Assembly (NCBI GenBank): GCA_016712505.1
Contig: JADJQY010000042.1
Coordinates: 269,809-333,808, forward strand
DNA from: Candidatus Eiseniibacteriota bacterium
Lineage (GTDB): Bacteria > Eisenbacteria > RBG-16-71-46 > CAIMUX01
Length of the DNA stretch: 64,000 nt
Direction of reading: 5' to 3'
The notes beneath the pieces are model-generated. The model was given only the letters and a program-made list of their open reading frames with translations, did not search any database and was not told the DNA's origin. The stretch's first letter is position 1; every line of letters begins with the position of its first letter. A program made the translations under genes and the position numbers. Shown piece by piece: positions 11,665 through 53,919 of the stretch.

Positions 11665-14298
11665 TCACTCCACGGTGGTCTGGGGAACGCCGAGCCCGAA
11701 CAATACTCCCACCGCGGCGTCGAGAACATCCTGGAGGTCGGAGCCGATCGACCGGGCGCCCTCCTTGGCTCCGGCCGATTCCGTAACCTCATGGCGAAGT
11801 TCGAGTAAACGGGCCAGCACCAGGGAAATGATCTCGCCTCCGGTCGCCGGCCCCCCTTCCACCGCGCCCCTTCCAGCGGCGTGGGCGCTCCCGAGCAGGG
11901 AGAGCAGACCGTCGGTATCCCCCGATTTGACCGCCGCTTCGACCAGGCGAAGGGCCCGTCGGGACTGTGGGAGACTGCGGGCCGGGGCCGGGGCCGCCCC
12001 GATCGCCTGCCCGTGGCCGTCGACGGGATAGGGAAGCGACTCCACGATCTTGAGGTCGACCTGGGCCAGCGGGCGCGACACCTCGGGCGAGAAGATCCGA
12101 TAGAGACGCTGCAGCGGAGCGCTTAGCAGCACCCCGAGAAGAATCTGTGGCGGGATCCGGACTTCGTCCCGGCTCCCCAGGATATGGAGGTTGTTGAGGC
12201 AGTAGAACCCCTCGTGGTCGATCGCGGCGATGAGGCGATCCCCGGTCTGCCGCAGGAAGATCTTCGACCCGCGATAGCGCTTGAGATCAAACCCGCTCTT
12301 CCACACTTTGGGTAACTGATCCCGCGTCTCGGGCAGGTAGAGATATCCGCCGCGCCACTGCACGCGATACGGCAGGACTTCCGCGCCGGAGAGAAGAGCC
12401 GGACGCCAGCGCGTACGCGCCTCGGGATCGACCAGCACCTCCCGCCCGCGGGAGTCGTGCAGCCGGAGTTCCGGCAGGGCCTGATCCGCCTGCACCGACT
12501 TCTGGCCGTACCGGGCGATCAACCCGGAGTAGCTCCAGAGTACGTCGCGCAGCCGAAGCGGGCTCTGCAGCATCCGCGTCTGGAACTCAACCTCGTCCTT
12601 CTCCCGGAAGATGCGGAGCGCCCCCGCGCCCGCGCTGTACTGCGCGGCCGGCACCCAGTGATCCAGGCCGACGTAGGGAGCGGTATCGGTGTCGCTCTTC
12701 GCCGCGCGCAGGATCCGGTTCCTGACCAGCGGGGCTACCCCGTCGGCGCCGTCCCTGCGCCGGACCGCGTAGAAGACGGTGAACCCGGTGCTCGCGCCCG
12801 GCCACGGCGACGACTCGAGCAAGGTCAGCTCCAGCAGTTCGCACTGGAGCAGGAGCCGCTCCCGAATGCGAGAGAAGTGGTGGCCGGCGAGCAGCGAATC
12901 CGGAACCAGGAAGCCGTGGTGGCCGCCTGGCCGGGTGATGCGGAGGGCCAACTCGATGAAGAGCGGGTAGAGGTTCAGCTTGTACTGCGCCCCAGCCGGG
13001 AAGAGCCGGTCGTAGTAGGCCCGCTCCTCCTCGCTCGCCCCCTCGCGATCGCGCAAGCCGTGGCTGATCCAGGGCGGGTTTCCCAGCACCACATCGAACC
13101 CTCCCCGCTCGAACACCTCGGCGAATCGCCGTTCCCAGAGGAACGATGGAGAGAAGGCCGAGGACTCGAGCGAGAGCGCGTCCCCCACCTGGATGGTCGT
13201 CCCCAGCAGATACGGATACGACTCCCCCAGGGCGCGGTCGAGCGCGGCACCGAGTTCGGCCAGTCCGTGCTCGAGCAGACCACCGCAGAGTCGTGCAGCC
13301 CAGAGGGAGAGATTGTGGGCCGCGATCCGCGCCGCCCGCGGATCAAGGTCGACCCCGTGGACCCGCGTGAGGCGCGCCAGCCGCGCCCCGAGATCCTGGT
13401 CCCCCCCGTCAGGGGTCGCGTGGGCCGGAGCGCCGTGACACTTCCAACCGGCCAGCCGCTCGGCCGCCGCAAGCAGGAACTGCCCGCTGCCGCAGGCGGG
13501 GTCGCAGACCGCGAGTCCGACGTCAGCGCCACGCGCCGCCAGCGGATCGAGAACGGTGCGCGCGATCTCGCCGATCAGTTCGGGCGGCGTATACATCACG
13601 CCGGCCCCTCGACTCCGCTCGCGATCGAGCCGGAAGGCCGGCCGGCCGCGCGAGGAAAGAACCAGGGCATGCCGCAACCCATGACCATGGATCAGCCCCG
13701 GGAGATCGTCCTCCGGGGTGGCGCGCGACACCAGCGGATGGAGCCGGCGAACGACTTCCTCGAGATCACGCCGGGTCAAATCGAGCGCCGTGGCCAACAC
13801 CCGGACCCGCCCCAACCCAAAGCGGTAGGCCGCCTCCCGATTCGCCGCCGGACGTCCGGCGTCCCAGGGCGTCTCGTCGACCTCGTTCGCCCCGCTCCAC
13901 TCCTCGAGTAGCCGGAGCGAGGGCAGACTTCCGAGCCGCAGTCGCTTACGTCCTTCGGCCAGTGGAGAGACCACCAACCCGGCGAACTCCATCTGCATGA
14001 GCAGGACGAGTTCGAGCGCCAGCGAGTGAAGCCGCTCGTTCGCCTCCTCCATGCGCGGCTCCTCCTCGACGAGGGCGGGGACGGGCCGGCCGGAGTCGAA
14101 GAACTGCAGCTCGAGTTGCGGGGTGTCCGATTCGACGTGGCGTACCGTCGGGCGCTTCCCCCCGCCATGAGGAGCAGGATCCGACGGATCTGTTCCAGCG
14201 TCTGCGCAGTCCGCTTCGCGCTCATCGTGAGATGACCAGACTTCCGGCCAGGAGCCGTGTATTGCCCGGCGCCACGAGTCGGTAGAAGTAGAAACCAC
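11665..14298 (-). CDS. Large gamma-class N6-adenine DNA methyltransferase (Eco57I/TaqI-like, Type IIG/IIL-like architecture), with no neighbouring restriction or defence genes
   Basis: Motif I VCDPACGSGQFLL and motif IV VLGNPPW, plus a ~470-aa C-terminal target-recognition region. The start is ambiguous (14298, overlapping the upstream gene by 76 nt, or an internal M at about 14052). Confidence 0.7.
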   Translation of the reverse strand: MVSTSTDSWRRAIHGSWPEVWSSHDEREADCADAGTDPSDPAPHGGGKRPTVRHVESDTPQLELQFFDSGRPVPALVEEEPRMEEANERLHSLALELVLLMQMEFAGLVVSPLAEGRKRLRLGSLPSLRLLEEWSGANEVDETPWDAGRPAANREAAYRFGLGRVRVLATALDLTRRDLEEVVRRLHPLVSRATPEDDLPGLIHGHGLRHALVLSSRGRPAFRLDRERSRGAGVMYTPPELIGEIARTVLDPLAARGADVGLAVCDPACGSGQFLLAAAERLAGWKCHGAPAHATPDGGDQDLGARLARLTRVHGVDLDPRAARIAAHNLSLWAARLCGGLLEHGLAELGAALDRALGESYPYLLGTTIQVGDALSLESSAFSPSFLWERRFAEVFERGGFDVVLGNPPWISHGLRDREGASEEERAYYDRLFPAGAQYKLNLYPLFIELALRITRPGGHHGFLVPDSLLAGHHFSRIRERLLLQCELLELTLLESSPWPGASTGFTVFYAVRRRDGADGVAPLVRNRILRAAKSDTDTAPYVGLDHWVPAAQYSAGAGALRIFREKDEVEFQTRMLQSPLRLRDVLWSYSGLIARYGQKSVQADQALPELRLHDSRGREVLVDPEARTRWRPALLSGAEVLPYRVQWRGGYLYLPETRDQLPKVWKSGFDLKRYRGSKIFLRQTGDRLIAAIDHEGFYCLNNLHILGSRDEVRIPPQILLGVLLSAPLQRLYRIFSPEVSRPLAQVDLKIVESLPYPVDGHGQAIGAAPAPARSLPQSRRALRLVEAAVKSGDTDGLLSLLGSAHAAGRGAVEGGPATGGEIISLVLARLLELRHEVTESAGAKEGARSIGSDLQDVLDAAVGVLFGLGVPQTTVE

Positions 14299-16447
14299 TC
14301 GGGACCAGAGCGCCGTCGGCGCGACGTCCGTCCCAGGTCATCACCTGCGCCCCCGGGACCCAGTCGAGCCGCGCCACCTCACGCCCGTTGGCCGCGATGA
14401 TCCTTAGATCGGTCCCGGCCGCCCGTGGCGCGACGCCGTCCAGCTCGAAGCGAATCGGAACGCCCCTGGTTCCGGGATTCGGAGCCACCCGCAGCTCGGC
14501 CCGAGCCGCGAGGAACACCGATGCACTCTCGACCACGAACCAGTCTCCCCCCTCGAGTCCCAGCGGGCGGGCGCTCAGTCGATAGCGATACGAGCCCGGG
14601 TGTTCCGGGCGGTCGGTGAGTCGCGTCTCTCCACCCGGCCGGCGCTCCGCCTCGTAGACCAGGACCACACCGTCGCCCGATCGCCGCTCGAGGATGACCT
14701 GCCACTCCAGGTCGAGCGCCAGTTCGAACCAGAGGTCGATCTCCCCGCCGACCGCGGATGCGGCGAGTGCCGGCTGGAGCACCGGGGTGGGATACTGCGG
14801 AGCGACCAGGGTCGATTCGGCGCGCACGATCCAGCGCCCGGCGGGCAGCCCGCTCCCATCGTCCAGGTGCTCGAGTGCGAATGCCCCCAGCTCGTCGGTC
14901 AGGGCGGTGGCCACCGCGCCGCTCGTATCCTCGCGTGCCCAGACCCGCGCGCCGGCAACCGGTGCGCCATCGCCCGCGTCGTGCACCACGCCGGTCAGGC
15001 TCACCGTCCGCTTCGGCTCGAAGTCGACGCGCAGCGCGGAGTCAGGGGGCGTCACCACGACGACGGTCGCTTCTTCCAGGGAGTTGACCTTCGCGTGATA
15101 CTGCCGTCGCAGCGGCCCCTGGGCCAGGAAGAGCACTCGATAGCTCCCCGCGGGGACGCAACGCAGGGTGTACCCCCCCGAGGCCGTGATCTCGCGGCGC
15201 AGTGTGTCTTGCGCGGAGAACGCGATCACCTCGGCCGACGTGACGCCGTCGAAGTTCGCCGTCACCGTTCCGCTGATCCCACCTGCCGTTCCGGGATCAA
15301 GGTTGCACGGAGTCTCGCGGCGCCCGGTGAGATCGATTCCACCGGTTTCGTCCGGTTCGGTCACGCGTACCGCACGTGCTTCGCGCTCGATCGACGCGTC
15401 GGGATAGTACGTGTGGATGGCCGGGACGTGGACGAAGTAGCTGCCGCCGGGGAGGCCGATCAACTCGTAGATTCCGAGACTGTTGGTCGTCGTGGTGTAG
15501 AGCGCCCGGTCGGATACCCGGATGGCGCGGACCAACGCTCCGCCCAGCGGACCGACATTCTCCTCCAACACCTGACCGGTGATCTCTCCGCCACTATCCG
15601 GGGAGAGCAGGACGTTGTCGACCCGCTCTTGATCCGCGAGCGAGATCGTGCGCGCCGACCCGAGCTCCCGCGCGCCCCCGAAGTACTCCGGGATGTACGG
15701 CGTGCCTTCCGTGGCCGCCACCACCTTGTAAAACCCGGCAAAGAGCCCCCCCTGGCTCCAGTTCCCTTGCGCGTCGGTCATCGTGGTCCAGGAGCGCCGT
15801 GAGGTCGACTCCTGCAGGAGGATGCGAACGGGGGTGTTCGGGAGTGGCGCCGTGTCATCGGCGAAGACCGAGCCGCTCAGCACGGCGGACGGTCCGAGCC
15901 GAATCGTGCCGAGATCGATGATCCGTCCATCGGTGAGGGGAAAGCCGAGGGCGTCGCTCGAATCCTGCACCCCAGGATGCCAGGTGGCGAGGAACTCCTG
16001 CCACCGCCCGGCGGGGGCATCGGTCGCGTATCGAACGCGGGCGCGACCCGCCGGGATGCGCGCGAGTCGGAACGCCCCGTCGTGTTCGGTGAGCACCGCT
16101 GCGTGGAAGCGCCCCACCCGAGCCTCCACCACCACCCCGTCGAGCGGGGTCGAAACCCCTTCGACCAGCCCGGTGAGTCGCCCTTTGATCTCGCCGCCCG
16201 CGGGCGAAAGACGGATCACCAACCCCGAGGCCGCCTCCCCGGGGCGCAGCACCGTCCCCACCGCAGCCGCGGAGTCTGCCGTGTCCCCGAGATAGCGTCC
16301 GGGATAGAAGCGGACCGGATCCTCTGCCCGACACTCGACCGGAGCCACACCGATCGCGAGCGCGAGCGATGCGAGAACCCAGCGAAGATGGCGGCGGCAC
16401 GCCGCAAAGGTGTGCGTTCGGGACTGATGATTCATACGCGCAAGCAT
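14222..16447 (-). CDS. Secreted protein with multiple carboxypeptidase-regulatory-like (CarboxypepD_reg/Cna-B-like) domains and a T9SS C-terminal sorting domain
   Basis: Signal peptide, and repeated ~80-aa beta-sandwich-like modules. The C-terminus (LRVAPNPGTRGVPIRFEL...SGFYFYRLVAPG) matches the T9SS CTD. Confidence 0.65.
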   Translation of the reverse strand: MLARMNHQSRTHTFAACRRHLRWVLASLALAIGVAPVECRAEDPVRFYPGRYLGDTADSAAAVGTVLRPGEAASGLVIRLSPAGGEIKGRLTGLVEGVSTPLDGVVVEARVGRFHAAVLTEHDGAFRLARIPAGRARVRYATDAPAGRWQEFLATWHPGVQDSSDALGFPLTDGRIIDLGTIRLGPSAVLSGSVFADDTAPLPNTPVRILLQESTSRRSWTTMTDAQGNWSQGGLFAGFYKVVAATEGTPYIPEYFGGARELGSARTISLADQERVDNVLLSPDSGGEITGQVLEENVGPLGGALVRAIRVSDRALYTTTTNSLGIYELIGLPGGSYFVHVPAIHTYYPDASIEREARAVRVTEPDETGGIDLTGRRETPCNLDPGTAGGISGTVTANFDGVTSAEVIAFSAQDTLRREITASGGYTLRCVPAGSYRVLFLAQGPLRRQYHAKVNSLEEATVVVVTPPDSALRVDFEPKRTVSLTGVVHDAGDGAPVAGARVWAREDTSGAVATALTDELGAFALEHLDDGSGLPAGRWIVRAESTLVAPQYPTPVLQPALAASAVGGEIDLWFELALDLEWQVILERRSGDGVVLVYEAERRPGGETRLTDRPEHPGSYRYRLSARPLGLEGGDWFVVESASVFLAARAELRVAPNPGTRGVPIRFELDGVAPRAAGTDLRIIAANGREVARLDWVPGAQVMTWDGRRADGALVPSGFYFYRLVAPGNTRLLAGSLVISR

Positions 16448-16568: not shown

Positions 16569-18200
16569 TCACCGCACGACGGTCAGGCGACGCTCCCCCA
16601 GAACCCGCCCGGCGAGACTCAGCCGGGCCCAGTAGGCCCCGCTCGGCACCAGGCGCCCGCGGTCATCCCGGCCGTCCCACCGGATCGAGAGAGGGCCCCT
16701 GAAATGCTCGCCGGCGAACGGACTCGCCACCCGTCTCCCGTCGTTCGCGTAGATCACCAACTCCACCCCCCCGGTGGCAGGGAGGCTGAGCGCCCACGAC
16801 GTCGAGGTGGCAAATGGGTTCGGCTGATTGGCGGTCAGCCCAGCCGCCGACGGCGGCAGCTCCACCGAGGCGGTCGGCGACCCGCCCTCGATGGCGAAGC
16901 ACTTTCCGCCGATACCGCTGATCATCTGCGTTCCCGCCACCACGTCCGGCACCCCATTCCCGGAGAGGTCGGGCCCCCCGCGCACGGTGAAGACTCTGTT
17001 CCCGGTGGTGTACGACCAGAGGATCGCCCCGGTGACGCCGTCCATTGCGTAGACCTTGGTGTCGAACGATCCACAGCAAACATCGTTCACCCCGTCGCCG
17101 GTCACGTCCTCCAACCGATCGATTGCCCAGACGTCCCCGCCGTTCAAGGTCCCGACCAGGCTTCGCCAGAGCAAGGTCCCGGTCGCCCCGTCGTAGACCC
17201 GCGCCGCGCGGTCAAACGATCCGACGGCGACGTCGTCCACGCCGTCACCGCTCACGTCGTCCAGCCGCACCACCCGCTGGACGCTGGTGCCGACCGCCGC
17301 GTTCCAGATCACCGCACCCGTCGTCCCGCTGTAGCAGTGCACCTGATTGTCCCAGCAGCCCGCGACGACATCCTCCACTCCATCTCCGTTCGCATCCGGG
17401 TGGACGAAGACCGACTGGCACGACCCGGCGGAGCGGCTCCACACCGTCGCGCCGCTCGAACCGCTGACCACCCGGGCGCCCCCGACTGCATCGCCCATCG
17501 CCAGGACCACGTCACGGCGGCCATCCCCGGTCACATCCTCGATCGACTGGAGGTCGTAGAGTGCATCTCCTCCCAGGTGGCGCCAGACGATCGCGCCGGT
17601 GGCGCCATTGGCGCAGTAGGCGCTGTTGTTGTCGCTGCCGAGACAGAACACCACCTCGTTCACGCCGTCACTGTCGAGGTCACTCCCCAGGTCGGCCATC
17701 GCGTAGACCCAGCCGGAGACCGGCGGCGTGGGGGGCGAGTCGGAGTAGCTGTCGAAGCTCCAGAGGGTCGCACCGGTTTGCCCATCGAGGGTGAACGCCG
17801 TGCGGCTCCCCCAGGCGGCGCCGTAGAGCAGATCGGCGCTCCCGTCACCGTTCGCGTCGGGTCCCAGCCGCAAACAGGCATCTCCGTAGCCGCCGCTGTT
17901 GCTCGGGCCTCCGAGCGGCCGCGCCGACCAGATCAGCGTCCCGCTGCCGCTCGACCCTCCGCTCACGCAGAAGAGATGATCGACGCCACTCGGTCCGGCG
18001 TCGTACGAATCGAGCGCCACCTCGGCCACGCCATCCCCATCCACATCCGGGGTCACCACGACGCAGACCACGTTCTCGACCCCCTGAAAGGACCAGATCA
18101 GCCCCTGGGCGGACGCCCCGCTCCCCGCCCCCGCGCCGGCCACTGCCGTGAGCGCGCCGAACCCCGCCACGAATCTCGAAACCCAGCTCGATCGGGACAT
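16569..18200 (-). CDS. Secreted beta-propeller (PQQ/FG-GAP-like repeat) protein with a T9SS C-terminal sorting domain
   Basis: Repeated DxDGDGxxDVxxG... blades (VTGDGRRDVV, VSGDGVDDVAVG, VTGDGVNDVCCG). The C-terminus (ANQPNPFATSTSWAL...SGAYWARLSLAG) matches the T9SS CTD. Confidence 0.7.
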   Translation of the reverse strand: MSRSSWVSRFVAGFGALTAVAGAGAGSGASAQGLIWSFQGVENVVCVVVTPDVDGDGVAEVALDSYDAGPSGVDHLFCVSGGSSGSGTLIWSARPLGGPSNSGGYGDACLRLGPDANGDGSADLLYGAAWGSRTAFTLDGQTGATLWSFDSYSDSPPTPPVSGWVYAMADLGSDLDSDGVNEVVFCLGSDNNSAYCANGATGAIVWRHLGGDALYDLQSIEDVTGDGRRDVVLAMGDAVGGARVVSGSSGATVWSRSAGSCQSVFVHPDANGDGVEDVVAGCWDNQVHCYSGTTGAVIWNAAVGTSVQRVVRLDDVSGDGVDDVAVGSFDRAARVYDGATGTLLWRSLVGTLNGGDVWAIDRLEDVTGDGVNDVCCGSFDTKVYAMDGVTGAILWSYTTGNRVFTVRGGPDLSGNGVPDVVAGTQMISGIGGKCFAIEGGSPTASVELPPSAAGLTANQPNPFATSTSWALSLPATGGVELVIYANDGRRVASPFAGEHFRGPLSIRWDGRDDRGRLVPSGAYWARLSLAGRVLGERRLTVVR

Positions 18201-19387
18201 GATGCTCCTCCGTTGGCAACCGGCGGGCCCCTCCGCGGGATCCGCCGCTCGGCTGGTCCTGCGGTGCTCAGTTCGGCTTGCGATACTCGGCGCGCACCAC
18301 GGTGCGAATTCCGCCGCGCACGAAGAAGTCTCCCTCGATCTGCATCCGACGCGGGCTGGTGACCGCGACCAGATCGTCGAGGATCCGGTTGGTCACGTCC
18401 TCGTGGAAGTGCCCCTCGTCCCGGAAGGACCAGATGTAGAGCTTGAGCGACTTCAACTCGACGCAGAGTTCGTCCGGCACATACCGGATCCGCAGCGTGG
18501 CAAAGTCCGGCTGCCCGGTCTTCGGACAGAGGCAGGTGAACTCCGGAATCTCGAACTCGATCTCGTACTCCCTCCCCGGTCGCGGGTTGGGAAACGTCTC
18601 GAGGGTCTTCGAAGGCTGACTGGGCCACCTGCGTGCTCCTGGCGGGTTCACTCCGGCCCTGCGGGCGTCCGATACCGACGGCAAGTTCAGCCAACCGCGA
18701 CCGCCGTCCGCCAGTCGGCGAATCAGAGCGGGCCTCGGTGCCCGCCATCGCGCGCCGGGGCAGGACGGAGATGCACCCGCCCCGCGCCCCATCAACTCCC
18801 GCCGGCCCGCCCCCCCCCCAGAGCCACGCCTTGGCGAACGTCCAGTCGCGGGTGATCGTCCGGACGGAGACGTCGAGGATCTCGGCCGCTTCCTCGAAGG
18901 TGTAGCCGGCGAAGTAGAGCAGCTCGACGACCTGGAGCTTGCGGGGATCTTCCTTGCCCAGTCGTTCGAGGGAGTCGTTGAGGTCGGTGAACTCCACCGC
19001 CGCGGCGCGAGCATCGAGCAGGCTCTCTCCCAGGCTGACCCGGACGGCGTCGGCGCCGCCGCGCCGGAGCGCCTTCCGCTCACGGGCATAGTCGATCAGG
19101 ACCCGGCGCATGGTGGTGGCGGCCACGGCGAGCAGGTGCCTGGGATCGGTGATCTGGGAGCGGGTCTCGCGGGCGAGGCGGATGTACGCTTCGTGGGCCA
19201 GGGCGGTGGGGCGAAGGGTATGGCCGGCCCGCTCGCGACGGAGGAGGACGTCGGCCAGCCCGCGGAACTCGGCGTAAACCAGGGGGAGCATCTGGTCGAG
19301 CGATGAGGCACCGTCGCCGGACGCCTGGGTCATCACCCCACGCACGAATCGCTCGATCTCTCTCGATCCTGGTTCAGCGAGCGACAT
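18098..19387 (-). CDS. ECF-type RNA polymerase sigma-70 factor (TIGR02999/ECF43-like). The ORF as assembled reads through a G10 tract into a ~240-aa Arg-rich junk extension that overlaps queF.
   Basis: Region 2 ([12 protein letters not shown]) and region 4 ([39 protein letters not shown]) are clear in the first ~190 aa from the ATG at 19387. Beyond WLWGGGG the translation is low-complexity and overlaps the bona fide queF in another frame. The real gene probably ends near 18793. Confidence 0.6.
18268..18792 (-). CDS. queF: NADPH-dependent 7-cyano-7-deazaguanine reductase QueF (unimodular YkvM type)
   Basis: Unmistakable QueF core: E(I)[26 protein letters not shown]...[18 protein letters not shown]. 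The ATG at 18792 sits in a TGATG arrangement with the predicted true end of the upstream sigma gene (see findings). The N-terminal boundary is otherwise uncertain. Confidence 0.7.
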
Positions 19388-19405
19388 GCGTCGCAACCTC
19401 CAGGG

Positions 19406-22400
19406 CTAGGAACGAGCGGGCGGCTTCATCGTCGCCGTCACCCAGCTCACCGCGTCCTCGAGCGTGCGCGCGGCCCCCCGCGCCAGACGCTCGGCCAACA
19501 GCTCCAGTCCGATGCGCGCCCCGAGCTGATCGCGACGCGCATCGATCTTCGCACTTTCCGCCGCCTGTAGCACCACCTCGCCTCGATCTCGGCACTGGAT
19601 GACCGAGCCGAGCAGTTCCGCCGCCAAGGCGGGATCGCCCTCGGTCTCGGCCAGGCGGCTGAGCGACCGCAGGGTGGAGCAGACCCCGACGCGTTGCCCG
19701 AGACGCAGGCGGGTGTTCACCGCTTCGAGGAGACTCGCCCGCGCGGTCGACAGGTCCCCCAGGTCGATCGACGCCTCCCCGATGAGGTTGAGGCAGATTG
19801 CCGCCCCCAGGGGATCGTTGAGGTCGCGCATGATGCGGATCGACTCGTTGAGGTGGACCAGCGCCTCGCTCGGGCGCTGGGTGGCCCAGTTGAGCAGCCC
19901 GAGATTGTTGAGCGCCGTGGCCAGACCGCGACGGTCACCCAGTTCGCGGGCGAGGGCAATCTGCTCCTGATTCCGGAGGATCGCGCCGTCGGTGTCGCCG
20001 AGCGCGAGGCTTGCCATGGCGATGTTGCCGATCGAGGAGACGAGCGAGACCCGATCGCCGATCGCACGAAAGTGGCGGATCGCCTCCTCGAAGTAGGCGT
20101 GGGCGTCGGCGAAGCGGAGTCCGGCCAAGGCGTTGATTCCCGCCATGTGTGCCGCACGACCGCTCAGCTTCGGATCGCCGGTGGTGCGTGAAAGCGAAAC
20201 CCCGGCCTCGGTGTACGACCGGGCGCGATCGTGCTGATCGAGCTGCGCGTGATACCGACTGAGATTGAGCAACACGTCGATCCAGTCGCGCGCCTGTACG
20301 GCCGGCGGAAGCTCGGCGGGATCGCGAGGCGAAAGCGCGGTGACCCGCTCGAGCCAGGCGAGCCCCTCGCGCCAGAACCCGCGGGTCAGCCAGTAGCGCC
20401 CAAGGGTACCGGTGAGCAAGGTCGCGCGACCCAGGTCGGATCGCACCAGGGCGATCTCGAGCGCGGCCGCGACATTGATGTACTCCTCAGCCACGCGTTC
20501 CAGTCGTGCCTCCGCATCCTCCGGGGTGTCGTCGACCCGCGGCGGTACCAAGTTCACAGCGGAGGCGAGCAGACGGTTCTCCAGCTCCTCCCGCTCCCCT
20601 ACCTGGTCCAACTGGAAACGGGCGAAGGCGTTGATCGTCTCCAGGAAGCGATACCGCGAAGCGGCATCCTCTCGTACCACGACCACCTCGACGAGCGACT
20701 GCTCGACCAGTCGACTGAGGAGATCGCAGACCTGCCACCGCTCGAGGTGAACGTCGGCACAGACTTCCTCGGCCAGAGCAGCGGTCCAGCCGCCGCGGAA
20801 GACCGACAGGCGAGAGAAGAGCAGCCGCTCCACCGGCTCCAGGAGACGGTAGCTCCACTCGATCAGACCGGTGAGTGACTGGTGGCGCCCGGCGAGCCCC
20901 CGTACTTGCCCGATCTCGAACGGTCGGGTCACCACGCGATCCAGGATCTCGGCGCTGGAGTGGCTCCGCGCGTGGCTCGCCGCCAGTTCGATCGCGAGCG
21001 GCAACCCGTCGAGCCGTCGGCAGATCTCGGCCACGACCATGGTGGCCGCGTCATCGAGCACGAAATCGGACCTCCGCGCCCGGGCGCGGCTCTCGAAGAG
21101 GCGGACCGCCTCGTACTCGCGCACCAGCGCCGGGTCCGCATCGGGGGCCGGCAGCTCGAAGCGCGGGAGATCGAATACCTGCTCGTCGATCAGGTCGAGC
21201 GGTTCCCGGCTGGTGGCGAGGATCGTGACCTCCGGACAATGAGAGACCACCGCGTTGACCAGGTCGGCGGCGGCGTCGAGGAGGTGCTCGCAGTTGTCGA
21301 GCACGAGCAGCAGCCGCTGCGAGCCGAGGGCACGGAGGAGCGCGGCGTCCGGCGAGGCGTCGGTGGCGGCGTCGCGAACCCCCAGGGTGCGCGCCACGAG
21401 CGGGGCAATCGCGTCTCCTTCCCCCAGCAGGGTGAGGTCGACGAACCAGACCCCCTGGGGAAAGCGGTCGGCACTGCGCCGCGCTACCTCGATGGCAAGG
21501 CGGGTCTTGCCGCAGCCGCCCATCGCAACCAGGGTGACCAACCGATGTCGCGCCAGGAGCTCGAGGGCGGTCTCAAGCGCGCGCTCGCGACCGATGAAGG
21601 TCGAGAGCCGGGCGGGCAGGTGCACCGCCTGCGGTTCACCGTCGATCCGGCCCGCACCGGCCACCAGATGCAGGGCGCGGGCGCGCTCCCGCAGGAGCGC
21701 TTCCTCGAAGAACCGTCGCGCGTCCGACGCGGAGGGGCGTTTTGACGGCTCGAGATCGAGACAACGGGCAAGAAAGTGACGTACCGCTGCCGGGACCAGC
21801 GAGGGGAGCCGGATCCAGTCGATCTGCCCGCCGCGGGTCGCTTCGATCAAGGCCTGCCCATTTCCACCGGCCACCGCGGGTGAGCCGGAAAGGCACTCGA
21901 AGAGCACGCAGCCAAACGCCCAGAGGTCGGAACGATCGGCAATTGGCTCTCCTCCGGCCTGCTCGGGGCTCATGTAGCCCAAGGTTCCACAGAGGCCGGA
22001 CAGAGACGTCTCCTCCCCGCGTTCGGCGTTGAGCGAGGACGTGGTGGCAAGCCCAAAGTCGAGCACCTTGACCCAGCCGTCCGGTGTCAAACGGACGTTT
22101 TGCGGCTTGAGGTCCCGGTGGACGATCCCGCGGGCGTGGGCGGCCTCGAGCGCGGCCGCGATCTGCCGGGCCACATCGAGCGCATGCTCGAAGGGGAGCC
22201 CCTCCGTCCCGATCCGCTCGGAGAGGTTCGCGCCCGGGACATACTCCATGGCCAGGAACGCGATTGCCGTACCATCCTCGCGCGTCACATCCTCGAAGGC
22301 GAAGACCTGGGCCACATTCGGCTGGGAGACCGAGGCGAGCGAGCGAGCTTCCGCGCGCAGCTGCTCGCGTCGGACGGCGCTCGCGACCAGGTGGCGGGGA

Positions 22401-22756
22401 AAGGTCTTCAGCGCCACCTCGCGTTGCAGCTCGGGGTCGCGCGCGAGATAGACCACCCCCATTCCCCCGCGTCCCAGCTCCCGGAGGATGGGATAGCGAC
22501 CCAGACGATCGGGAGGAGACCCCGGCTGGTCCGACGGGGGAAGCAGGAACCGGTTGCTCAGATCGTTCGCCCGGAGGAGCGACTCGACATCGGCTCGCAG
22601 GGCCGCGTCATGGCCGCAGGCAGCGGCCAGACGCTGGGAACGACCAGCCGCGGGACTCTCCGCCAGTTCGTGGAAGATCGCCTCTGCTCTCGGATCCAGC
22701 ATGATCGGACAAGTATACCCGTGCGGAGGCGTTCCCGGTCCGTACATCGAGGGCAT
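19406..22756 (-). CDS. Ser/Thr protein kinase fused to an NB-ARC/AAA (STAND) ATPase and C-terminal TPR repeats
   Basis: The N-terminus carries the ...AEAIFHELAES...DAALRADVESLL motif typical of bacterial STKs. Kinase motifs are GRGGMGVVYLA, HRDLKPQNV, DFGLA. A P-loop follows (TLVAMGGCGKTRLAIEVA), then about 10 TPR-like repeats. It lies 18 bp upstream of the ECF sigma. Confidence 0.85.
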   Translation of the reverse strand: MPSMYGPGTPPHGYTCPIMLDPRAEAIFHELAESPAAGRSQRLAAACGHDAALRADVESLLRANDLSNRFLLPPSDQPGSPPDRLGRYPILRELGRGGMGVVYLARDPELQREVALKTFPRHLVASAVRREQLRAEARSLASVSQPNVAQVFAFEDVTREDGTAIAFLAMEYVPGANLSERIGTEGLPFEHALDVARQIAAALEAAHARGIVHRDLKPQNVRLTPDGWVKVLDFGLATTSSLNAERGEETSLSGLCGTLGYMSPEQAGGEPIADRSDLWAFGCVLFECLSGSPAVAGGNGQALIEATRGGQIDWIRLPSLVPAAVRHFLARCLDLEPSKRPSASDARRFFEEALLRERARALHLVAGAGRIDGEPQAVHLPARLSTFIGRERALETALELLARHRLVTLVAMGGCGKTRLAIEVARRSADRFPQGVWFVDLTLLGEGDAIAPLVARTLGVRDAATDASPDAALLRALGSQRLLLVLDNCEHLLDAAADLVNAVVSHCPEVTILATSREPLDLIDEQVFDLPRFELPAPDADPALVREYEAVRLFESRARARRSDFVLDDAATMVVAEICRRLDGLPLAIELAASHARSHSSAEILDRVVTRPFEIGQVRGLAGRHQSLTGLIEWSYRLLEPVERLLFSRLSVFRGGWTAALAEEVCADVHLERWQVCDLLSRLVEQSLVEVVVVREDAASRYRFLETINAFARFQLDQVGEREELENRLLASAVNLVPPRVDDTPEDAEARLERVAEEYINVAAALEIALVRSDLGRATLLTGTLGRYWLTRGFWREGLAWLERVTALSPRDPAELPPAVQARDWIDVLLNLSRYHAQLDQHDRARSYTEAGVSLSRTTGDPKLSGRAAHMAGINALAGLRFADAHAYFEEAIRHFRAIGDRVSLVSSIGNIAMASLALGDTDGAILRNQEQIALARELGDRRGLATALNNLGLLNWATQRPSEALVHLNESIRIMRDLNDPLGAAICLNLIGEASIDLGDLSTARASLLEAVNTRLRLGQRVGVCSTLRSLSRLAETEGDPALAAELLGSVIQCRDRGEVVLQAAESAKIDARRDQLGARIGLELLAERLARGAARTLEDAVSWVTATMKPPARS

Positions 22757-43101: not shown

Positions 43102-43362
43102 GCGCGGACTGATCTTTTAACCTCTTTTTTTTCAATACGTTACGTCGAGTGATACTCGGCGCAACCTGCCCGATCCCGGCCTTCGGGGGGCCCCACGATC
43201 CGCGCCAAACGCCCCTCCGGGGCGACCCGGAAGGCTCCCCACCAAAGTGATTCCCGACCCCGGATCGGACAGTCCCCCAGTCGTTTCCCGCGTCTTACGC
43301 TTGCGTTCTGGGCGGGCGTCGGGTATCCCTGTCGCAAATCTCAATGCACAGAGGAGGCTGTC

Positions 43363-50833: not shown

Positions 50834-50952
50834 CCAGCCGCCCGGCCATTGGCCGAGAATGGTGATTATTCATGTCCGATGCGGGCCTCACGCGTCGCCA
50901 CTGGGGGGGGAGTCGAAGCAACCCATCCCCCAAGTCGCGGAGGTTACCGTTC

Positions 50953-53919
50953 ATGGATCGTTCTTGCCTGCCCCACTGCGCGCATCGGAGCACCCCCTCC
51001 ACGAGGGGACGCTGGGCCGTACCGTCGGCCAGGCTAGCGGCCGCACTGCTTCTCGCAACCCCGCTGGCCGTCCCCGCGGCCGCTCCGCAGCTGCTGCTCG
51101 ATCAGGTGATCGGAAGCAGTCGAATCGAGAGTCCGGTTCGGCGGAATGCCAGTACCTTCGTCGGGATCGAAGGACCGAACTACGGCATCGCGCGGTACCA
51201 CCCGACCGCGGGTTGGTCGGTGATCACCGCTCCTCCAATGAAGTCCGAGGTCTACCCGTTACTGGTCGGTGATCAGGTCTACTTCTGGGGCACGCCATCG
51301 TATGTCGATGACCGGCGTCGGCTCTATCGGGTCGACGGCGACACCGCGGTCGAGCTGGCGGTGACGAGCGATCCGAGCTCCGACCGGGAGATCCGCTCGC
51401 TCAACGGTCTGGCCCTGTTCGTCCTCGGCGACCCGGCGCACGGAACGGAACTCTGGGTCAGCGATGGCACGCCGGGAGGCACGGAGTTGCTGCTCGACCT
51501 CAACCCCAGCGGAAGCTCGGTCCCCCGTCTGGGGGCCGCGAGCGCCGGCTACATTTACTTCCGTGCCTACGATCCGACTCATGGCTCGGAGCTGTGGCGC
51601 ACCGATGGCACTCCCGGAGGTACGACGTTGGTCGCGGATCTCGTCCCCGGCGTGGACGGTTCCTTCCCGGACGATTTCACCGAAGTGAACGGGCTCGTTG
51701 TCTTCACGGCCCGAACTTCGGTCGTCGGGGAGGAACTTCACCGCACGGATGGCACCTCCGCGGGCACCTACCTGATACGCGACCTGTACCCGGGCGTGTG
51801 GGGTTCCGACCCCGCTCAACTCGCATCGATCGACGGATGGGTCTACTTCGCGGCGCGCACGCCGACCGAGGGAATCGAGCCGCATCGGACCAACGGGAAC
51901 GTCATCCAGCTGGTGCGCGATGTCGATCCCGGCGCTGCCTGGTCCTGGCCGAGCGGGTTCTTCGGCTATGACGGTGAGGTCTACTTCGCTGCATTCCAGG
52001 ATGCGACCGGCTTCGAGCTCTGGAAGACCAACGGCCTCTCTTCCGGGACGTCGTTGGTTCTGGATGCCAGCCCCGGCATCGGGTCGGTCGCGCCGCACTC
52101 GTTTCGAGAGGTCGACGGCGTGCTCTATTACCTGGGCTATCGTGACGGGGGGAGCAATGAACTCTGGCGCACTGAGGGAACCGGCGGGAGTACGTCTCGC
52201 ATCGTGCTCTATCCCGGTGTCGAGGAGGAGGTCAGCGCCTTCTTCGACGATGGCAGCCGGTTGATCGTCGGGGCCAACGACGGCACGACGGTGGGTCACG
52301 AGCCGCGTCGCTACAATCCGGCCAACGGAAACCTCACTCTCTCCGCCGATCTCAATCCCGAGAGCGACGCGAACAACGAGATGCTCGCCCCCTACGGCGA
52401 CGATCTGCTTGCCGTCCAGGAGAGCTATCTGCACGGCCGCGATCTCTCGCTCTACTTCCTGAATGACCTGGACGCATCCGGCTCGTTCGACACCGGTGGC
52501 GGGCGAGAGTCGAACTTCCCGGTCGGAGCGAAGTACGCCATCTCGGGAGAAATGCTCTACTTCATCCAGTGGCAGATCGATCTCGGCCTCGAGATCGCGG
52601 TGTGGGACGGCGACGATCTGTATGAGATCGACCTCTTCGCTGGTCCCGAGGGATCGGAGCCGAGCGACCTCGCGGTCACCGCCGATGGTCGCTGCTTCTT
52701 CATCGCCCGGCGCGACGACGGCGCCACCTACGGCCTCTATCGCCTCACGCCTCCTCCAAATCCCACTCCGGTCCTGGTCGCGTCGTTCGGGGACATCACG
52801 CCGCGCGATCTCGTGGCACTCGGAAACCAGGTGGTCTTCGTCGCCACCGATCCAGGCGGGGGTGAGGACCTCTGGGTGTCGAACGGAACCCAGGCGCGCC
52901 GGATCCTGGACATCGAGCCAGGCCCCGGTACCGCAGCTCCGGCCGATCTCACCGTCGTGGGCGATCAGCTTTACTTCACCGCCGCGACCGCGGCGGCCGG
53001 TCGTGAGCTTTGGGTCACCGATGGCTCCGAGGAAGGAACCCATCTCGTCACCGACCTGGTTCCGGGGCCTGCGAGTTCGGGCGTCGGGCAACTCACAGCC
53101 GGCCTGCCCTACCTGTACCTCACCGCTACCACGTCTGCGACCGGGCTCGAACTCTGGCGCGCCACTTCCGCCGGCATCGAGGCGCTGGCGGAGATCGTGC
53201 CCGGCCCGGGAAGCGGCACACCGACCGACCTCGCCTTCTGCGGATCCCGGCTCCGCTTCAGCGCCGACGACGGGAGCGGTCGCGGACGTGAACCCTGGTC
53301 GCTCACCGGGGAGCGCACACCCGTCTTGACCTTCGATCTGAATCCCGGCGCCGGCTCGTCCAATCCGCGCGACTTCGGCGACCACCTGGGCGCAACCTAC
53401 TTCACGGCAGACAACGGGAGCTTCGGACGCGAGCTCTGGCGGGTCGCCGGCGGTACGCTGGAAGCGGTGAGCGAATCGATCGTGCCCGGCGCCGCCTCGT
53501 CGGCGGTCGGCGATCGCGCCACCGTCGGCTCGAAGCTCTACTTCGTCGCCGAGAGCGCCGCCTTCGGCCGCGAGATCTGGTGGGTCAGCGATCCCGGCGG
53601 CGCCGCCGACACCCCCACCGCTCCCATGCTCCTCACGCCTCCCGCCCCCGGCCTCGCCCTCTCGGTCGGCCCGAATCCGTTCGTCGACCAGCTCGATCTG
53701 CGCTTCCGTCTCCCCCAGGCCAGCCCGGTTCGGGTGTCACTCATTGATGTAGGCGGCCGGGAACTCGAGCGGCGGTCGTTCACCCACCTCGATGTAGGGG
53801 CTCATCAGATCCCCTGGCCGATCAACCATCCCACGGCCCGGCGCGGCGCCGGCGTGCTCTTCGTGCGCATCGAGGCCGCCGGTCTGACCGAGGTCCGGAA
53901 GGTGCTTCGGGTGAGGTGA
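50953..53919 (+). CDS. Giant secreted ELWxxDGT-repeat protein with a T9SS C-terminal sorting domain
   Basis: About 17 tandem ~50-aa repeats centred on ELW(R/K/V)(T/S)DGT..GT.LV (TIGR04534-like). Signal peptide. The C-terminus (SVGPNPFVDQLDLRFRL...GVLFVRIEAAG) is a T9SS CTD. Confidence 0.75.
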   Translation: MDRSCLPHCAHRSTPSTRGRWAVPSARLAAALLLATPLAVPAAAPQLLLDQVIGSSRIESPVRRNASTFVGIEGPNYGIARYHPTAGWSVITAPPMKSEVYPLLVGDQVYFWGTPSYVDDRRRLYRVDGDTAVELAVTSDPSSDREIRSLNGLALFVLGDPAHGTELWVSDGTPGGTELLLDLNPSGSSVPRLGAASAGYIYFRAYDPTHGSELWRTDGTPGGTTLVADLVPGVDGSFPDDFTEVNGLVVFTARTSVVGEELHRTDGTSAGTYLIRDLYPGVWGSDPAQLASIDGWVYFAARTPTEGIEPHRTNGNVIQLVRDVDPGAAWSWPSGFFGYDGEVYFAAFQDATGFELWKTNGLSSGTSLVLDASPGIGSVAPHSFREVDGVLYYLGYRDGGSNELWRTEGTGGSTSRIVLYPGVEEEVSAFFDDGSRLIVGANDGTTVGHEPRRYNPANGNLTLSADLNPESDANNEMLAPYGDDLLAVQESYLHGRDLSLYFLNDLDASGSFDTGGGRESNFPVGAKYAISGEMLYFIQWQIDLGLEIAVWDGDDLYEIDLFAGPEGSEPSDLAVTADGRCFFIARRDDGATYGLYRLTPPPNPTPVLVASFGDITPRDLVALGNQVVFVATDPGGGEDLWVSNGTQARRILDIEPGPGTAAPADLTVVGDQLYFTAATAAAGRELWVTDGSEEGTHLVTDLVPGPASSGVGQLTAGLPYLYLTATTSATGLELWRATSAGIEALAEIVPGPGSGTPTDLAFCGSRLRFSADDGSGRGREPWSLTGERTPVLTFDLNPGAGSSNPRDFGDHLGATYFTADNGSFGRELWRVAGGTLEAVSESIVPGAASSAVGDRATVGSKLYFVAESAAFGREIWWVSDPGGAADTPTAPMLLTPPAPGLALSVGPNPFVDQLDLRFRLPQASPVRVSLIDVGGRELERRSFTHLDVGAHQIPWPINHPTARRGAGVLFVRIEAAGLTEVRKVLRVR

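Follow-up and report, generated by a model that had tools for sequence, protein, structure and literature searches.

The poly-G tract in the ECF sigma factor gene preceding queF is not a biological device. It overlaps the head of a 16-nt G-rich insertion that comparison with related loci shows to be derived and, among the assemblies compared, unique to that of the window (the whole 64,000-nt stretch of DNA analysed here). With moderate confidence, we attribute this insertion to a consensus or polishing artefact at a strain-variable spot, rather than to a genetic switch. Among the observations behind this reading, none of the 13 related loci has the tract, the native ATG of queF is lost only in the window, a second G-run indel is found in the same assembly, and the site falls in an assembly-graph bubble in a related MAG.

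The poly-G tract and the reading frame of the sigma factor gene

The assembled sequence has C10 on the plus strand, and G10 on the minus strand, at 18810..18819, as reported by a first-pass annotation of this DNA, and this is the only homopolymer of at least nine bases in the window. On composition alone the tract is unsurprising: the G+C content of the window is 67%, and a G10 was present in 46 of 100 dinucleotide-preserving shuffles of it. It is an outlier solely against the window's own steep decay in run length, with G/C runs of four, five, six, seven and eight bases numbering 457, 120, 31, 7 and 1, respectively. The next-longest homopolymers are a T8 at 43125..43132 and a G8 at 50903..50910. 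The G8 lies within a plus-strand ORF of 1015 aa (50872..53919), 31 nt from its beginning and thus close to the putative start.

The features relevant to the interpretation of the site are listed below.

19406..22756, minus strand: gene for a Ser/Thr kinase of 1116 aa that contains AAA and TPR regions, partner of the sigma factor gene; 99.8% identical to relatives, with no indels
18818..19387, minus strand: intact part of the ECF sigma factor gene, codons 1-190; protein 100% identical to P0001/P0125 (201 aa)
18810..18819, minus strand: G10 homopolymer; two G complete the Trp190 codon, and the eight that follow form the start of the insertion
18802..18817, minus strand: 16-nt G-rich insertion GGGGGGGGCGGGCCGG, defined by alignment with relatives; placement ambiguous by 2 nt
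18787..18801, minus strand: displaced sigma tail codons CGG GAG TTG ATG GGG (R-E-L-M-G), now out of frame
18098..18817, minus strand: about 240 codons of sigma-frame read-through, non-coding by codon periodicity
18790..18792, minus strand: ATG annotated as the QueF start (MBK8233788.1, 174 aa); by descent, a Met codon of the sigma tail
18631..18786, minus strand: native spacer between the sigma factor gene and queF, orthologous to the 139-nt spacer of six distant relatives (L005-L010)
18625..18630, minus strand: garbled native queF start, AGGTGG in place of ATG; relatives read ...GCACGC ATG CCC AGT...
18268..18624, minus strand: conserved queF coding sequence, codons 2-119 and stop; 100% identical to P0127 (119 aa), TIGR03139 E=1.4e-52
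14158..14163, minus strand: second window-specific G-run anomaly, G6 against G7; G7 in L017 (99.4% identical) and L005 (84%)

The sigma ORF occupies 18098..19396 of the minus strand if begun at a TTG (432 aa), or 18098..19387 if begun at an ATG (429 aa). Residues 18-189 match TIGR02999 (E=7e-52; 175.9 bits, relative to a cut-off of 126.15; profile positions 7-178 of 183) and PF07638 (E=1e-44; 152.9 bits). The ORF has no stop for about 240 further codons past this domain, and crosses queF in another frame, which upholds the earlier description of a read-through of that length; an open frame of about 240 codons is unremarkable at 67% G+C. Below 18620 the third positions of the read-through fall on the second codon position of queF, where G+C is 0.27-0.47.

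The length of the tract sets the frame. With the 10 G of the assembly, the sigma factor reads through as WLWGGGG..., and nine G would fuse it to the frame of queF. The +1 frame of the sigma factor gene reaches a TGA at 18794..18792 that overlaps an ATG (18792..18790) in the queF frame; the arithmetic by which 11 G would yield a TGATG overlap is correct. With the assembled 10 G, this TGA is not in the sigma frame, so there is no stop/start overlap in the sequence as it stands.

Like other ECF sigma factors of the TIGR02999/PF07638 family, that of the window matches the sigma2 and sigma4 regions, encodes a ...RDWxFAKAWLWREL tail, and has a kinase gene immediately upstream. It is unlike them in that the ORF is 429 aa as assembled, with the tail out of frame, whereas the family median is 197 aa. 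Every relative combines a length of approximately 185-230 aa with an in-frame, C-terminal W-L-x-R-E-L tail, and the window as assembled has neither. A sigma factor of this type beside a Ser/Thr protein kinase is what we take to be an ECF43-like group arrangement. The kinase gene of the window lies 18 nt upstream of the TIGR02999-type sigma factor gene, the layout of kinase-associated ECF systems. Downstream of the kinase-sigma pair, and oriented like it, lie genes (16569..18200 and 14222..16447) whose products are secreted beta-propeller and CarboxypepD_reg proteins ending in FlgD_ig.

The insertion is confined to a single assembly

The tail of the sigma factor was compared across 13 related contigs from at least 12 independent datasets (NCBI, JGI, ENA and Logan). 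Seven are close relatives (L001, L002, L004 and L011-L014), 99.6-99.9% identical to the window and drawn from NCBI, JGI, ENA and Logan assemblies; the other six are distant relatives (L005-L010), Logan contigs approximately 84% identical to the window and collinear with it over up to 9 kb. All 13 read TGGCTCTGG-CGGGAGTTG(A/G)TGGG, encoding ...AWLW-RELMG... and then a stop, with the CTCTGG-CGGGAGTTG junction present in every case. A comparison with orthologous loci had been proposed as a check on the length of the tract; it finds G2 directly before CGGGAG in all 13 loci, and a tract of any length in none. The 16 extra bases GGGGGGGGCGGGCCGG are in the window only, by both alignment and direct extraction. 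They separate the Trp190 codon from the conserved codons for R-E-L, and shift the sigma frame by +1. Relative to the 99.6-99.9% identical contigs, identity is gap-free over the 10,463 nt leading to the tract, ends at 18814 and resumes at 18625.

Protein-level comparisons give the same picture of the native tail. A search with the sigma factor retrieved a cluster of 201-aa proteins that are 100% identical up to ...AKAWLW, then continue as RELVGERRGPD or RELMGERRGPD before the stop. Across 112 sigma homologues, with a median length of 197 aa and tails of 6-34 aa, position +4 after 'WL' is occupied by L, I, M or V in every one, and R at +2 and E at +3 predominate. The W-L-x-R-E-L pattern is absent from the window's product both with 10 G and with 11 G, and returns only on deleting all 16 bases; hence 11 G, a length at which none of the 13 relatives has a tract, is not the proper state of the gene that it had been thought to be. 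Removal of the 16 bases alone restores no stop, as the sigma frame then runs in frame into queF, and therefore the spacer must differ in other ways too, through either errors or real changes.

The insertion resembles nothing else at the locus. No second copy of GGGGGGGGCGGGCCGG beyond chance expectation was found in the window with up to two mismatches, it is absent from all 16 related loci searched, and a search for local repeats around it found none that was meaningful. It shares only short G-rich words with its surroundings (GGGGCGGG downstream, and GGGCCGG in the tail of the cassette haplotype described below), which prove nothing. An origin as a repeat, an IS end or a duplication was rejected, as neither the window nor the related loci hold another copy. 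Searching for the junction pattern with 0-30 inserted bases gave no match in GTDB representative genomes, where relatives of the sigma factor reach at most 51% identity; in JGI metagenomes, the sole match was an insertion-free contig already among the relatives. Exact-match look-ups with the 543-aa gene of the window, and with its 174-aa QueF, likewise returned no recorded contig.

The start of queF

The protein encoded downstream has the conserved core of QueF, matching the unimodular preQ1 synthase model TIGR03139 at 176.5 bits (cut-off 86.9). ATG 18792, which had been put forward as the start of queF, lies far upstream of this core. Firstly, the QueF profile begins only at residue 62 of the ORF that starts there. 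Secondly, QueF homologues are mostly 116-125 aa long. Thirdly, in all seven related loci where the start could be compared, which represent three upstream contexts (L004, the L005 group and L016), queF begins at ...CATG|CCCAGTCAGCC, an ATG equivalent to position ~18627 of the window, 55 codons (165 nt) below ATG 18792. Fourthly, GC3 periodicity is strong in the sigma frame down to ~18800 and in the queF frame from 18620 downward, and is flat in all three phases (0.7-0.8) over 18630..18800. These four lines of evidence together show that ATG 18792 is not the real start of queF, which is a separate gene of 119 aa.

The public annotation uses the upstream ATG. The 174-aa QueF MBK8233788.1 corresponds exactly to the window ORF at 18268..18792 on the minus strand, and its N-terminal extension of 55 aa has no homologue and is the translation of the spacer and the former sigma tail. 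The native start is itself damaged: at 18630..18625 the window reads ...GCAGGTGG|CCCAGTCAGCC, so that the queF ATG is destroyed, in the window only.

The TGATG that had been regarded as textbook translational coupling of the sigma factor to queF falls within the TTG ATG of the displaced sigma tail codons, an ancestral Leu-Met pair (...RELMG...). It is like known stop/start overlaps in that it would arise with one added G, and a true overlap of this kind, ATGA, is found at 14225; it is unlike them in that its ATG is a former internal Met codon, and not a conserved queF start. In the six distant relatives the gene order is kinase, sigma factor (204 aa, ending ...AWLWRELMGPAAE before the stop), 139-nt spacer, queF (119 aa) and a 543-aa gene. 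As this spacer separates the two genes in relatives where they are adjacent, sigma-queF coupling is not conserved.

A polymorphic site between the sigma factor gene and queF

In the contigs compared, the interval between the sigma factor gene and queF (18625..18814 in the window) takes four arrangements, which makes it a hot spot of structural variation. The first is the native spacer, the promoter-proximal half of which, next to queF, is well conserved between the window and the distant relatives. The second is a cassette of approximately 2.4 kb that replaces the spacer in the 99.8% identical lineage, exactly from the sigma tail to the queF ATG, and carries a gene for a 724-aa LVIVD/FlgD_ig protein with its own terminator (239..2651 of L004). 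L001, L002 and L012 probably have this cassette too, as each has a gene equally far downstream of the sigma factor gene. The third is a DDE transposase at the same site (2229..3942 of L011), and the fourth a divergent gene upstream of queF in a 97.4% identical contig (1..1386 of L016).

The haplotypes diverge at 18787/18786 and immediately upstream of the queF ATG. Both anomalies of the window are close to these edges, with the 16-nt insertion 15-30 nt from the first and the AGGTGG lesion 0-3 nt from the second. The region is broken up at the cassette in the short-read MAG GCA_020851285.1: L003 ends at the equivalent of 18925, L004 spans 19051..18814 and 18625..18471, and L017 starts at 18597. 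On both sides of the cassette, the neighbouring contigs among these three overlap by exactly 127 nt, which is the signature of a k=127 assembly-graph bubble and indicates that several haplotypes were present in one sample.

An Rfam scan of 17500..20000 for a preQ1 riboswitch or other RNA gave nothing at or near a family gathering score; the single weak match, a sub-threshold CRISPR-DR28 (E=0.24), lies inside queF and outside the spacer, and a riboswitch or other RNA in the spacer was accordingly rejected. A scan of 18500..18900 for consensus promoters and terminators found none, and the predicted RNA fold of 18620..18830 was not notable (z = -0.09).

Quality of the assembly

The contig that encodes MBK8233788.1 is 466,435 nt long and belongs to a Ca. 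Eisenbacteria MAG; a contig of this size from an uncultured activated-sludge bacterium suggests a long-read assembly. From the accession range, the taxon and the contig size, we assume the window to be part of the Nanopore study of Singleton et al. Among the MAGs of this taxon listed there, JADJQY comprises 42 contigs, with coverage of 8.2x by Illumina and 13.6x by Nanopore (Singleton et al. 2021, PMC8012365). The sigma product of the window assembly is absent from the protein collection, which suggests that the gene was dropped by the annotator as a pseudogene.

The flanks of the locus are otherwise almost free of indels, and the assembly is generally well polished. In the 10,330 nt downstream of the site, the only gap relative to the sister MAG is the G6 at 14158..14163, about 4.6 kb from the G10. 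This indel puts the opening 23 codons of a restriction-modification gene (11665..14225, minus strand; 853 aa, Eco57I/MmeI-type N6-methyltransferase/restriction) out of frame with the remainder, whereas its ORF is intact in two lineages; at 14225, its ATG overlaps the stop of an upstream 741-aa gene. The G6 is probably a residual homopolymer error, with a naturally switched-off restriction-modification gene as the alternative. A scan of GC3 phase at homopolymers of at least six bases identified no further clear frameshifts in the window, being a crude approach that misses shifts near the ends of genes. Analysed by codon position, the 87 SNPs separating the window from the sister MAG, which include 25 synonymous and 28 non-synonymous changes, were uninformative.

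Discussion

Residual indel errors are a known feature of long-read (Nanopore R9.4) metagenome assemblies, in which they cause frameshifted 'pseudogenes'. The anomalies of the window share several properties with such errors: they are G-rich or homopolymer-linked, occur in one assembly only, and disrupt ORFs that short-read assemblies made independently from the same lineage show to be intact. The insertion can be viewed alongside the second homopolymer indel, as both distinguish the window from independent assemblies of the same lineage, and the latter interrupts a conserved ORF. The sequence of events we envisage begins with a long-read (Nanopore) MAG of approximately 10x coverage, presumably polished with short reads. 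In the very G+C-rich stretch of about 190 nt, reads from a second haplotype would diverge, and the consensus or polishing step may have left, or created, G-rich indel errors there, as with the change from G7 to G6 at 14158. The AGGTGG at the start of queF would be an artefact too, like the 16-nt insertion, and the sigma factor made by the organism would be a normal one with the C-terminus ...AWLWRELMG..., as would its 119-aa QueF, translated from the native start of the gene.

The position of the insertion beside a structural polymorphism points to a mixing of haplotypes during consensus or polishing, rather than to plain miscalling of a homopolymer. Three considerations weigh against an artefact. 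Firstly, at 16 nt the insertion is larger than the 1-2 nt typical of Nanopore homopolymer errors. Secondly, the haplotype with the native spacer has no independent copy at more than 97% identity. Thirdly, removing the 16 nt does not by itself recover a stop, and the flanks are otherwise well polished. The earlier proposal that the assembly contains an error probably pointed in the right direction, but the error would not be the simple gain or loss of one base from a homopolymer that had been envisaged.

It is possible, if on balance doubtful, that the insertion is instead a real, strain-specific lesion, or the scar of a junction, in a genome where the native spacer was either kept or regained through imprecise recombination. 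The tail of the sigma factor would then be altered or pseudogenised, and QueF forced to start upstream, at GTG 18651, TTG 18684 or ATG 18792. The site is a true hot spot of structural variation, with its four arrangements upstream of queF, and illegitimate recombination would likewise leave scars at both junctions. Moreover, the spacer of the window is orthologous to that of the distant relatives, without being identical to that of any other sampled lineage, and therefore the haplotype itself is real. However, this explanation needs two independent hits on conserved elements within 190 nt, both exactly at haplotype borders, in a background that is 99.4-99.8% identical to intact strains. It also leaves the sigma factor with a tail incompatible with its family, whether there are 10 G or 11 G, and QueF with a 55-codon extension that has no coding signature; and the insertion is in no second assembly. 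One sub-case is that the true tract has 11 G and was under-called by one, such that the sigma factor ends at the TGA and the 174-aa QueF predicted by PGAP starts at the overlapping ATG; the G6 at 14158 makes such under-calling of a G run plausible.

The proposal that the tract is phase variable fares much worse. Slipped-strand contingency loci are well known as poly-G or poly-C tracts in genes of Neisseria, Haemophilus, Campylobacter and Helicobacter, and the window is like them in having a G tract of at least eight bases within a reading frame, the length of which sets the frame. Ten G within an ORF suffice for slippage, and one extra G makes a stop that overlaps an in-frame ATG, such that the sigma factor could toggle between a terminated, TGATG-coupled form and a read-through form. 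Yet contingency loci vary in length and have a functional ON state, whereas among the relatives of the window there is no tract, and no variation in its length: it is absent, rather than variable, in 13 related loci. The 'ON' product would lack the tail motif that is otherwise invariant, in which the +4 residue is hydrophobic in 112 of 112 homologues. The coupled start would be built from an ancestral Leu-Met pair, with the true start of queF 165 nt downstream, and a 139-nt spacer in relatives where the genes are adjacent. To our knowledge, there is no contingency-locus precedent in this class of ECF sigma factor, or in this organism. We therefore consider it very unlikely that slipped-strand mispairing at this tract switches the sigma factor. 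Equally improbable, in our estimation, is a hybrid of these ideas, in which the insertion is real and the true tract has 11, or a variable number of, G; it would have re-terminated the sigma factor at a TGA overlapping its former Met codon and, once the native queF ATG had gone, recruited that ATG as a coupled start for QueF, with the tract able to toggle both.

Two-colour Illumina chemistry is known to give reads with artefactual poly-G tails. A chimeric mis-join, in which the G run marks the junction of two unrelated genomic regions, would explain why the match to the 99.8% identical relatives breaks off exactly within the run, but is rejected as scarcely conceivable: the order of kinase, sigma factor, queF and 543-aa gene is the same in all six 84% identical contigs, which are collinear over 9 kb; in GCA_020851285.1, contig L004 with its cassette joins these same two flanks; and the spacer of L005 has its orthologue in the 188 nt that follow the tract.

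The interpretation we prefer, of an artefact at a strain-variable spot, matters mainly for the quality of public data, as the annotation of this MAG includes a QueF with a spurious N-terminal extension of 55 aa (MBK8233788.1). Scans of MAGs for 'phase-variable' homopolymers, or for overlapping genes, will flag such sites, which independent assemblies of the same lineage can quickly resolve. In the corrected gene model, the sigma factor is a protein of approximately 200 aa ending ...AWLWREL..., and QueF is a protein of 119 aa. If the lesion were instead real, it would represent the ordinary, strain-specific inactivation or remodelling of one among many ECF sigma factor paralogues.
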